DNA from: Chrysochromulina tobinii
Taxonomy: Eukaryota
Reading direction: 5' to 3'
NCBI GenBank assembly: GCA_001275005.1
Contig: JWZX01002559.1
Location: 1-40,165 of the forward strand
DNA: 40,165 bases
Shown: piece by piece, positions 2,764 through 40,165 of the stretch
Position numbering within the stretch: the stretch's first letter is position 1
Layout of the letters: each line of letters opens with the position of its first letter
Translations under genes and position numbers: made by a program
Notes under the pieces: model-generated
Seen by the model: the letters and a program-made list of their open reading frames with translations, nothing else
What the model was told of the DNA's origin: nothing
The model's database searches: none

Positions 2764-5700
2764 TCACGACCACGACACCGAATCTCCGGGCACCAGCACC
2801 CTCGGCAGGCCAGCGGGGCGGTGGCTGTCGCCCGCGACGGCCACAAACGCCAGTCGCAGCGGCTTGCCACTCAGGATCGCGAGCGTGTACCCCGACGCCG
2901 CGCCGCTCAGCCGCGCGACAGTCCCCGGCACGAGCACCGGCAGCTCAAAGGGGATTGGCACCTTCGGTGCGAACGTGAGGTTGCCGGAGCCGAGGGGGTT
3001 GGTGGCGTCGTAGCGCTGACCCGAGAGTGCGAAGACAACGTGCCACGCAACCATATGATAGCCATAGTGCGAGTTGGCGAGCGGTTGGCCCTCAGCGCCG
3101 TAGCCGAGGCCGCCGTGGAGAGCGACCACGTTCCACAAGTCATTGAGCGACGAGCGCCACCACGAGAACGTCGTGTTGAGCACTCCTAGCGCCTCGTCCA
3201 CGTCGCCACCGCGCCAGATGCTGAGCGTCGCCCAATTTGCATTCGCCATCATCCACACGGAGTTGTCCGAGTCGTTGTGGCCGGGGTTGGGACCTGGATA
3301 GGGGTACCGCCCCGTCTGACAGAGCAAGCCGTAGGGCGTGTCGTTCTCGCGCAGCACGGCGCGCAGGTGGGAGGTGACCTGCGCGTCGGTGGTCAGAGTG
3401 CCCAAGCCCAGAGAATCGGCAAGCACCTGCGCGTAGAGTCTCGGGGGTCATCAGAGGCCATCAGAGGTCATCAGAGGTCGTCAGAGGTCATCAGAGGTCA
3501 TCAGAGGTCATCAGAGGTCATCAGAGGTCGTCAGTGGTCGTCAGAGGTCATCAGAGGTCATCAGAGGTCGTCAGCGGTCGTCAACGGTCATGAGCGGTCC
3601 TCAACAAGCACCTGCGCGTAGAGAGCATCGGCCATGATCGCGTCGGCTCCAGTGTAACTCCGATAGAAGCTGCCCGTCGTGTTCCAGAGCAGCTCGTCCA
3701 TCGCAACCCGCCCAACCTCGAAGGCTCGTGAGCACTTAGCAGCGAAGCCGGGGTCGTCCACTGCCGGCGAGAGCGCAAGCTCGGTGGCCGCACGCATCGC
3801 CAGCAGGTGGAACAGTCCCGAGAAACAGGAGACGTTGTACTGTGCGAGGTTGAGGCCATCGTACGTGTCCACCAGCTTGTCAGGTAGCCCAAACTGGGCA
3901 GCCCGGGCGATCTGCCACTGCGCCGCGCGCTTGGCGGTTGGCCAAAGCTCCACCAGCAGATCCTCATTAGCTGTCCACTGCCAGAGCTCGAGCAGGTAGA
4001 CGATGAACATGGAGGTCACATCGCCCATGACGCGCCCACACGGTGCGTCGAGCACAGCAGGCACGCCGGTGTCACATCCGCACGCGAGCTGCTCCTGGAT
4101 CATGCCATCGTCCGTCTGTCCGCTCGCCCACGCACGCATCTTGGACGGGACGCTCTCCGGCCAGAGCATCATGTACGGCACGTGCCGTTCTCCATCATTG
4201 TGCACGCTGTCCACGTTGACGCACGCGAAGGACTCCCACTGGCGCCATCGACCGTCGCGTAGCCACATGGCGCTACGCGTGTGATGCAACGAATTGAGAA
4301 GGGAATCGCCGAGCCAGGTGGGCAACGAGCTCCGACCCTGAGTCCTCCCAGCCAGCACGTTGGCCACCTCGGCCCACGAGGCCACGTCAGCAGCGACCTC
4401 GTCGCCCTCGAGCAGCGTGCGCGCCGCCTGCTCCGAGTCGTTCACCAGACTGGTGTAGTGGTTCCCCACGTCCTTGAGCACAAAGTCACGGTGGGGAAAG
4501 AACCAGCCGAGGGAGATGGTGAGCGAGGCATTTGCGCCCGCGGGCACGCGCAGCTTGACCGCCGCGCCGCCATAGGGATCCGAAGGCTCGAAGCGCGCGC
4601 CGAGCTTGCCCACGCCCTCAAATTCCTTCCACAGCGCCGTGGGGCTGCTCGCGGTGCCCAGGCTGACCACTGGGGCTTCGCGCCTCGGGACGGCGCCATC
4701 GCCGCTCGGGACGGCGCCATTGCCGCTCGGGACGGCGCCATCGCCGCTCGGGACGGCGCCATCGCCGCTCGCGAGCATCTCGACGCTGGCCGACGCACAG
4801 ATGGACACGTTTCCGGAGGCAGCATGTGTGCCCGGGCGCGAGAGCGTGAGGCAGCGCGGGTCGGCGCCTCGTATCCAGGAGCCTTTGGTCCCGGAGGCGG
4901 CGTCGGCGATCGGCGTGTTGCGCGCGGCCGGCACGCTCGAAAAGTTGCCGTGCTGGTAGCAAGAGCCGAAGGCGAAGCTCCATGCGGAGCAGCTCGCGTT
5001 AGCGGTGCAGGCCGCGTGGCACGCGATTGCCGATGGTGGGCGTGGCACAGGCGGCGCTGGGCACTTGGTAACCGTCGACACGTTTTGGAATTTGGAAGGG
5101 TCGAAAGTCGCCTGCGGCTGGCACGTCACGTTGCCAAGCGCGGGCACGGAGGCGTTGAGATAGACGCACGGGCCAGCCCAATAGCTGCGCATCTCGCGCG
5201 CCGACAGGCAGCCCGTGCAGTCGCCCGAGTGGTCTGAGCACGACGGCTCGAAGGTGCCTAGCGATCGGATGACGCCCGTCTGCACCTGGAGAGGCAGCAA
5301 CAAGTAGAATCCCAGTTCGAGCGCGTTGGCCGTTGGGTTGGTCGCAGTGAGCGTGAAGGCGGCACCGGGAACCGCGGAACCCGCCAGGTCGCCCACGCGC
5401 CACTGGGAACGGCCGAACACGGCCAGCTCTAGCCCGACCGGTAGTGAAGGATCCGACGGCACAAGGCGCGAAAACGGCATGGCTCCCGAGAAGTCGAGAG
5501 ACGCGACGCCGGGAAGGCCGTCGGGCGGGTGCGTGCGCAGCAGGCGCGCGTTCTCGAGAAACCCGTCGTTCACCCACACGCCGAGCGCCGCGTCATCCAG
5601 CGTGCTCACCTTGGCACTGCCGGCCGGGGAGTTGTTCTCAATTGTGAAAGAGTGAAGTGTGCCGTCCGCACGCAGCTCCACCGTTCCAGCGGCGAGACCG

Positions 5701-5903
5701 CCCAATGGTGGAGCGCTCCGCATCCCGCTCGGTGGCGGGATCCACGTGACCTCACCGGTACCCGCAGCCGAAGACTTCGAGAGCCACAGGTACTCATGCG
5801 GATGTATTGGCGTAACGTCTCCGTCGGCCCAGGCCCAGATCGCCCGGATCGGGGCCTCAGGCTCCAGGTAGATGGACGGCGACGCACGCATCGAAAAGTT
5901 CAT
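2764..5903 (-). CDS. Glycoside hydrolase family 116 (non-lysosomal glucosylceramidase/GBA2-like); join(5903..3612,3426..2764); N-terminus uncertain
   Basis: GH116-type motifs PPLGGLAAGTVEL..G, GRWRQWES..VDSVH, VDTYD, LLWN.TGSFY, IMADALYAQ|VLADSLG and SHYGYHMVAW. The two ORFs join in frame by removing GT..AG intron 3611..3427. Confidence 0.85.
3427..3611 (-). other. 185-nt phase-0 GT-AG intron filled with a 10-bp tandem repeat; both splice sites lie in a 19-bp direct duplication
   Basis: CAAGCACCTGCGCGTAGAG occurs at 3420-3438 and 3605-3623. On the sense strand it reads CTCTACGCGCAG|GTGCTTG. Removing the intron restores the ORF. Confidence 0.88.
3451..3600. repeat. Minisatellite, about 15 copies of TCAGAGGTCA, degenerating toward 3600
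   Basis: Directly visible 10-bp periodicity. Confidence 0.97.
4684..4771. repeat. In-frame 21-bp tandem repeat x4 encoding SGDGAVP within GH116
   Basis: CTCGGGACGGCGCCATCGCCG repeated four times with one substitution. Confidence 0.92.
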
Positions 5904-6212
5904 GTCGGCGCCCGACGAGGCCGTGGTTGCTGAACGGCAAGCGCTTGAGTGCCTCGAGTAGAGATGGCGTGCCGCTCGCGCGCGCCGCCCCGCCGCACAG
6001 GACTAGGATGAACATGTGCTTCACTGCATCGTGTTCATATGAATACACCCATCACGTACCAACCGAAAACAAAACAAGACTCCCCTATCACCCGATCAAG
6101 TAACCGGTCCCGTGGAGTCACTCCTTAAAAGATTCACGGCACGTTTCGGAACAGGCGATGTTATAAATTCCGCATCCGATTTCCCACACATCGCTCGTGC
6201 AGCACTTTTCTT

Positions 6213-23508: not shown

Positions 23509-23518
23509 TTGGCTGTGA

Positions 23519-23552
<34 letters not shown>

Positions 23553-23564
23553 TTGGCTGTGAAC
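23509..23564. repeat. (AAGC)8 microsatellite flanked by a perfect 12-bp direct repeat TTGGCTGTGAAC
   Basis: Repeats at 23509-23520 and 23553-23564; the insert 23521-23552 is exactly 8 units. Confidence 0.95.
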
Positions 23565-30652: not shown

Positions 30653-30860
30653 ATGTTGAAGCTTGAAACACCATAGCCGCATAGGGTAACTATCTGAGTG
30701 TTGAAACCCTCCCCCGGTCAAAATCTCGCGCACCACTCTTGGCACCCAAAGGGTTGGCACCAGACTGTAATGTTGAAACATCCTATAGGGTAACTATCGT
30801 ACCGGTGCATGTACCTTTGAGATGTGTTGAAACCCTCCCCCAAGGTCGAAGTCTCGCGCA
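30653..30860. repeat. Two imperfect direct copies of an ~80-90-bp unit
   Basis: Shared blocks ATAGGGTAACTATC (30681-30694, 30785-30798), GTGTTGAAACCCTCCCCC (30698-30715, 30824-30841) and TCTCGCGCA (30724-30732, 30852-30860). Confidence 0.85.
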
Positions 30861-39438: not shown

Positions 39439-40165
39439 AGGTCTAACCCTCTCGATGGCCGTGGGTGGGTCATCGATGGGTGGGTCATCCCGACGGGTGG
39501 GTCGTCTCAGCCTCGCGCGCCGCCACAGGTCTGCTGACCGTCCTCGCGCACCTGCGCGACGCCAATACCTCTGATGGTGATGAAGTCAGCGAGCCTCCGC
39601 ATCTACTCGGACCTGCGTGCGGCTGCGCTGCTGGGTGGCTACTACTTCCACTTCACGAGCCTCGCACCGCACCTTGATTTCAACGATGCGCTGCCTGGCT
39701 AGCCTGGCGACAACTACACTTGCTCGGCCGGGGGTGTGCCGCAGCACGAGCAACGTCGGCGCCTCCAGACCGCCGGCGGAGGCACTGGCGCGCAGCAGCA
39801 GCACAACGTGCTTCAGCGGATCGCCGCCGCCGGGTTTCGAGAGCGCGGATGGCAGGGATATTAAGCCTATATGGGGCTATATGCACTCTGCAACATTTAA
39901 TTCCCCGAGACTATATGTTAATCCGGGTGTGGGGGCCTTCGGGCCTGCCGGTCACACGCGCCGGAGTCAGAGTGGTGGGCGACGCGCGCGGGTGCGGCGC
40001 GGGCGCGGGGAGAACTCCCCGGTCCGTCAAGAGTTACGAATTTGGTGGGCCCGCGTGTCCCGTGTGTGTCCCGTGTGTGTGCGACTGGGCTCCTCGGGTA
40101 GAGGGGAGCCAGCCGGTAAGAACCTGCCTGAGGGGGACCTCGGAGGCATAGGGGTCGTTGAGCCC

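Follow-up and report, generated by a model that had tools for sequence, protein, structure and literature searches.

The 185-nt intron in a GH116 gene of Chrysochromulina tobinii is apparently one member of a genome-wide and ongoing intron gain that leaves long target duplications of variable length. New introns of this kind probably arise by pasting in copies of existing intron pieces, and we put at roughly 55% the probability that this one goes back to target-primed copying, in which a borrowed reverse transcriptase copied pieces of pre-existing intron RNA into a staggered cut, and the filling-in of that cut left the target duplicated. How new spliceosomal introns originate, apart from the classic transposon introners, has been hard to settle, since few young gains still show a legible footprint. 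In this alga, which is in culture, has sequenced genomes and also lives in lakes as wild populations, many introns carry long duplications that can be dated; their splice sites follow three layouts, their fillers fall into two families, and there are signs of presence and absence between close lineages. Together, these features make RNA-templated versus DNA-repair intron gain directly testable.

The window is the whole 40,165-nt stretch analyzed (contig JWZX01002559.1). The GH116 features within it are as follows, with the evidence for each in parentheses.

3612..6002, minus strand: upstream coding exon of the GH116 gene (non-lysosomal glucosylceramidase-like), ending in LYAQ (Pfam PF12215 and PF04685; RNA contig cover)
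3605..3623, minus strand: first copy of the duplication, made up of 12 exon bases and the 7 bases that open the intron, giving the GT donor at 3611-3610 (sequence, RNA joint)
3427..3611, minus strand: intron of 185 nt, phase 0, GT..AG (RNA joint 3419>3605 in X12 and X14, not in DNA runs X1 and X11)
3439..3604, minus strand: filler, with 16 CTGATGACCT-family units and 6 bp more, belonging to a genome-wide intronic repeat family (repeat analysis)
3420..3438, minus strand: second copy of the duplication, the last 12 intron bases, giving CAG, plus the first 7 of the next exon (sequence, RNA joint)
2764..3426, minus strand: downstream coding exon, from VLAD to the stop (RNA contig cover, protein match)

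The two copies of the 19-bp direct repeat (3420-3438 and 3605-3623) are identical and enclose 166 bp; of the possible cuts that take out the 185-bp spacing, 3611..3427 on the minus strand is the only one with GT..AG. The sequence-only reading, which had described a perfectly duplicated 19-mer around a 10-bp repeat, its upstream copy supplying GT and its downstream copy CAG, was thus right about the architecture. The exon copy accounts for 19 of the 185 intron bases and foreign filler for 166. Neither of the natural intron ends is present in this filler, which consists of 16 10-bp units, all in register, and a further 6 bp. Compared to the consensus, units 1-4 contain 3, 2, 3 and 1 mismatches and the later ones 0-2, the decay being strongest at the 5' end, and this polar degeneration had been noted before, as had the stops in every frame (8 in each of the three sense frames) and the lack of terminal inverted repeats (4 of 15 letters complementary). 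A branch-point-like YTRAY word had been claimed for each unit; 14 of the 16 units begin with one, but not every unit does.

RNA contigs from two studies (X12 and X14) both drop exactly 185 nt at 3419>3605 (CT..AC). X12 has zero letter differences from the window in the GH116 exons concerned, and X14 is about 1% diverged. In the two DNA runs (X1 and X11), contigs enter the repeat from both flanks and the splice joint is absent. Given the exact skip, the intact X12 exons and DNA that lacks the joint, we attribute the joint to splicing. The scarless LYAQ-VLAD product anticipated earlier is borne out: the spliced protein matches Chrysochromulina parva model P0074, from the same 90% cluster, at 985 of 985 amino acids. 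About 2,800-2,900 contigs per DNA run aligned to the window, mostly on the repeat, which marks the array as very abundant, although summed contig depth over the repeat was not taken as copy number.

At window position 5914, one base is missing in all four runs compared; the window's assembly has likely inserted 1 bp there, so that the GH116 N-terminus is shifted compared to P0074. A 21-bp coding minisatellite occupies 4684-4771 in a GH116 exon, where the X14 RNA is two units (42 nt) shorter, as in the shorter proteins P0065 and P0071. The gene call of cluster member P0075 opens with unrelated residues before RYPYPGP, which suggests another intron or a break inside the window's second GH116 exon in a sister lineage.

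Fourteen metagenomic members of the GH116 cluster are among the 15 listed (of 40 read, of 125), and none of them reads through the junction: six end reading into the intron, four start inside it with a slightly different tail, three start at VLAD and one starts later. Thus the intron is common to strains, with 10 of these 14 members reading into or out of it and with variants in the intron tail, and the earlier term "newborn" was an overstatement. For the nearest relative outside the cluster (77% identity), one gene call enters a different intron while the next passes LYAQ-VLAD gap-free; the two calls (P0076 and P0077) each occur in 4 contigs, the longest 5,554 bp, from which we infer one unspliced genomic contig without the GH116 intron. 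P0020, on a 12.9-kb contig, is likewise continuous across LYAQ-VLAD. The site therefore appears empty in the 77%-identical relative, in agreement with the lineage-specific position proposed before, and these intron-unaware gene calls point to an intron that is young and lineage-specific, not newborn.

A second locus gave a closer comparison. Among 15 listed cluster members at the L030 intron (LPN-VRD), 11 read into or out of the intron and two are uninformative. P0122 (97% identity) and P0150 are continuous across the site, yet enter the next intron, and they share linked residues, indicating a sister haplotype without the L030 intron; the intron is thus apparently missing from a haplotype 97% identical. 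In gene calls, relatives at 74-76% identity also lack it, and 3 of 23 matches (64-68% identity) go off-frame at the same codon, so that the position may have been hit in parallel or repeatedly, or may be old. At both loci, the apparent empty sites are read indirectly, from intron-unaware gene calls, and the lake-versus-culture locus pairs contained no empty site for any array.

Scanning with 3.3 repeat units yielded 125 loci, the source of all family counts. These loci were ascertained by repeat pattern, with culture and lake assemblies and their strains mixed; dropping 17 duplicate loci left 108 (169,778 bases) for anchored tests. Blind direct-repeat surveys were noisy, containing array-derived and coding repeats, and provide examples only, whereas counts come from the control-anchored tests. 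A flanking direct repeat with a score of at least 10 was found at 26 of 85 distinct arrays, compared to 4 of 600 mismatched-flank controls. Leaving aside one of the 26, which stems from a repeat artefact, 22 of 25 offer a scarless G[TC]..AG cut in array sense versus 5 of 25 in antisense.

The first 14 exon letters were copied upstream at 54 of 148 acceptor-like ends (control, 1-2 of 148). Forty of these 54 copies begin no more than 3 letters from the junction, 35 of the 40 with GT or GC, and the acceptor-side copies have a median length of 27 nt. GT or GC also follows 68 of the 94 acceptor-like ends at which no copy could be detected, a pattern that decay of older copies would predict. On the donor side, the last 12 exon letters were copied downstream at 21 of 40 AG-GT donors followed by array (the hyphen marks the junction; control, 0-1 of 40), three of the 21 being repeats inside introns. 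The duplication measures 12-38 nt in 38 of 40 acceptor-type cases and up to 63 nt in the donor-side test. The search for further repeat introns with flanking duplications that had been proposed earlier thus yielded many. The sequence-only reading missed the wider class to which the locus belongs, found across the genome, whose fillers mostly come with an acceptor or donor of their own, and it missed the non-repeat family that behaves likewise.

Three layouts were found: the filler brings the acceptor, the filler brings the donor, or the duplication gives both, as at the GH116 locus. The duplicate spans AG-GT at GH116 (12+7), L014 (16+7) and L058 (51+12), and also at L023 and L071. Where filler and duplicate are flush, the inner junction matches the repeat register by at least 3 nt in 8 of 12 cases (one tandem case dropped), against 6% expected. 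Several repeat-unit variants coexist, and a single 13-mer tail closes 32 of the 148 acceptor-like ends; a fold-back between the most frequent tail and the final repeat unit is predicted to reach -8.5 kcal/mol in one variant and -2.8 in another. In L044 and L069, fillers end at a natural acceptor though no clean cut results. In silico removal of eight predicted acceptor-type introns left open frames, several at recognizable motifs, and RNA contigs splice one array-bearing intron. These long exon duplications likely mark ongoing intron-making in this freshwater alga.

Related introns are dispersed over unrelated genes (125 loci, with shared tails and the second filler family), and copies do not resemble one another over their full length between the splice sites: at one end or at both, they carry a locus-specific exon copy, and array length varies. 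The second filler family is non-tandem, with 43 sense versus 2 antisense cores across 25 loci. Its 3' end is fixed at CAG, its 5' start is variable, and it carries the same kind of exon duplication as the array family; RNA contigs show splicing of one second-family intron whose duplicate has decayed (L061 1374-1449). Among viral contigs, no match to the repeat or its tail and no GH116 relative was found, and the companion search of prokaryote genomes gave no matches. The viral collection held one second-family match, on a phage-like contig whose segment L126:4220-4554 consists of about 330 terminal bases of alga-type intron sequence; this contig is probably a chimeric assembly.

In L007, L044, L062, L075 and L080, duplicate-plus-array units have been re-amplified in tandem, lengthening the introns, with up to seven arrays in L080. 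At L064:965 and L003:1627 (array-sense coordinates), duplicates start with GA or GG straight after the filler's acceptor; non-canonical donors or one-base shifts are possible there.

In target-primed reverse transcription, copying of an RNA starts from a nick in the target and breaks off early, so that long variable duplications, one fixed and one variable end, and junction matches are expected. The long variable duplications, the sense-oriented fillers of intron type, the fixed natural and variable inner ends, and the register matches observed here lead us to favor the copying of RNA pieces. The process would begin with two nicks, offset from each other by about 12-60 bases, in keeping with the earlier reading, whose proposal of a staggered cut that duplicates the target is supported. 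A free 3' end would then pair over 0-5 matching letters with intron RNA, from pre-mRNA or an excised intron, and prime a partial copy of it, made by a borrowed reverse transcriptase. The far end would be joined at a short match, leaving fillers cut short at variable points. Within exons, only cleanly spliced insertions would persist, in one of three ways: the duplicate starts with GT or GC and the filler ends in its own acceptor; the duplicate closes with AG and the donor comes with the start of the filler; or AG-GT lies inside the duplicate and pure repeat, supplying branch-point-like words, would be enough, as at the GH116 locus. Thereafter, duplicates would decay and arrays change length.

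The natural acceptor ends of L044 and L069, which no clean cut accompanies, suggest that the filler end is set by the template and not by selection alone. Selection alone may nevertheless explain much of the exact ends and orientation. Agreement with non-LTR retro-insertion is partial. Target duplications of variable length are present, and a fixed 3' end with variable 5' truncation is seen in acceptor-type fillers of both families, not in the GH116 copy of the window. Fillers have no poly(A) or simple-repeat 3' tail, ending instead in the CAG acceptor tail, and no reverse transcriptase or partner element was found among the 22 long ORFs of the window. To our knowledge, an ordinary LINE insertion is not expected to be sense-biased. 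We tentatively extend the RNA-copying reading to a wider proposal, which we regard as doubtful on balance: spliceosomal introns would propagate their own ends, excised intron RNA (whole ends or internal repeats) being copied into staggered cuts in transcribed genes without the help of a dedicated transposon family. Most introns of these families would have arisen in this way, and the process would still be segregating among lake lineages.

Short junction matches and duplications are equally marks of DNA end-joining, and the GH116 copy alone cannot separate an RNA from a DNA template, since its filler lacks both natural ends. An alternative that we consider unlikely, though it is the main competitor, is DNA-templated break repair, in which a staggered break is filled in, an end primes on an intronic array or intron end in DNA, copies the tract and rejoins, and selection keeps the spliceable products, with no retro enzyme involved. 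This accounts for the junctions as well as RNA copying does, including the matches at both inner junctions where the duplicate spans both exon sides (e.g., L058), and the abundance of the array would provide templates. Duplication-plus-filler events also occur in intergenic DNA (L032 versus L076; and 23509-23564, where a 12-bp direct repeat between long ORFs surrounds eight copies of a 4-bp unit, a different and apparently local filler), and staggered-break intron gain with 4-12-bp repeats is known in Daphnia from the available text of PMC4202315. However, capture of this kind should take any sequence in either orientation, while the fillers here are of intron type, lie in sense orientation and stop at natural acceptors even in cases that allow no clean cut. 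Moreover, the 40-kb window holds very few other exact duplications around unrelated filler.

Remodeling of old introns, with one half replaced by a spliced-junction copy (mRNA or cDNA repair) or by local tandem duplication and deletion, is quite improbable. It would fit duplicate boundaries that lie exactly at splice junctions, the normal intron end formed by the other half, the common re-duplications at existing splice sites, and distant relatives that may carry an intron at the L030 codon. Yet GH116, L014, L058, L023 and L071 copy both exon sides, which one half-replacement cannot yield; L077 stacks two different filler families at one junction; and the nearest relatives' sites are apparently empty at both loci examined (GH116 and L030).

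Reiterative, telomerase-like synthesis from a short RNA template at a staggered break, proposed in the sequence-only reading, fits poorly, and we hold it to be very improbable. Haptophyte telomere repeats are, as far as is known, 6 bp long, compared to the 10-bp unit here. Most fillers carry non-repeat splice-site tails, such as the 13-mer, several unit variants coexist, and the non-repeat family leaves the same footprint; the tails and the second family argue for the copying of existing intron sequence instead. In its favor are the 10-bp units with in-register junction matches, the nearly pure repeat of the GH116 filler and, in the part of PMC2246262 available, occasional target duplications at telomerase-made interstitial repeats. 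The retro-tail synthesis offered alongside it is a possible reading and comes close to the RNA copying that we favor. An assembly artefact or chance repeat is already refuted in substance: short-read assemblies do break at the 10-bp repeat, but DNA contigs reach into it from both flanks, RNA omits exactly the intron, conspecific gene calls from other assemblies run into the same intron, and the 15 letters of the duplication other than GT and AG would match by chance with a probability of about 3e-9 at local base frequencies.

Repeat-filled haptophyte introns as such are probably already known, as Emiliania introns are reportedly rich in strand-biased 10-11-bp repeats. A term search of the accessible text of Hovde 2015 (PMC4580454), von Dassow 2009 (PMC2784329) and a Phaeocystales paper (PMC12480563) returned nothing on the repeats described here. 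No description of the long-duplication intron class was found in the open-access papers and preprint main texts searched. Splice-site recruitment from duplicates is already known elsewhere.

The comparisons that follow draw on the available portions of the sources. Introner-like elements of Symbiodinium and Polarella glacialis also recruit splice sites from the target duplication (Roy et al., bioRxiv 10.1101/2020.10.14.339549): in classes 4 and 5 the element brings an acceptor and the duplicate the donor, and in class 14 an AGGH duplicate provides both. Duplications there have a fixed, short length (3-8 nt), in contrast to the variable 12-60 nt here, where fillers also vary in length and start and are largely tandem repeat. 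The introner of a marine Chrysochromulina sp. MAG carries its own donor (Gozashti 2022, 10.1101/2022.06.06.494994 / PMC9860276); dispersed related introns, no TIRs and one co-opted splice site are shared with it and other surveyed introners, but its duplication is 4 bp, not long and variable. Neither a TIR nor a fixed short duplication links the present introns to TIR or MITE introners. About 5% of classified introners are non-LTR retrotransposons in the Gozashti surveys (PMC9860276; PMC12130899). The C. tobinii assembly (GCA_001275005.1) was in the 2022 introner input list and has 0 introner families in the 2025 dataset (PMC12130899). Screens that require similarity up to both splice sites likely miss introns with one end that is a unique exon copy, and a blind spot is indicated in family-similarity screens that scored C. 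tobinii as lacking introners.

In Daphnia pulex, intron gain at staggered double-strand breaks leaves 4-12-bp repeats around filler of mostly unknown source (Li et al. 2014, PMC4202315). Direct repeats of adjacent exon at the opposite intron end, repeated secondary insertions and decay with age are common to both systems; the repeats are longer here, and the fillers come from shared intron families. Tandem genomic duplication of AGGT likewise provides a scarless donor and acceptor (Yenerall and Zhou 2012, PMC3443670), but the body of the GH116 intron is not duplicated exon, being mostly foreign filler (166/185 bases). Non-LTR and Penelope-like elements of Chlamydomonas resemble our introns in making short 5'-truncated insertions with variable target duplications in an alga (Lopez-Cortegano 2023, PMC9977147). 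They differ in having known autonomous partners, and the available text does not describe them as scarless intron makers. A Replitron was rejected as a candidate, as the filler itself lacks direct terminal repeats (PMC10288648, available text).

Elsewhere in the window, two dispersed direct repeats (14 and 18 bp) lie at 30681-30841, upstream of a gene with a beta-lactamase fold. At 39441-39528 on the plus strand, an intron-like GT..CAG stretch, predicted from sequence, directly follows a stop codon; it contains a 15-17-bp repeat related to the array antisense and has a 6-bp flank repeat.
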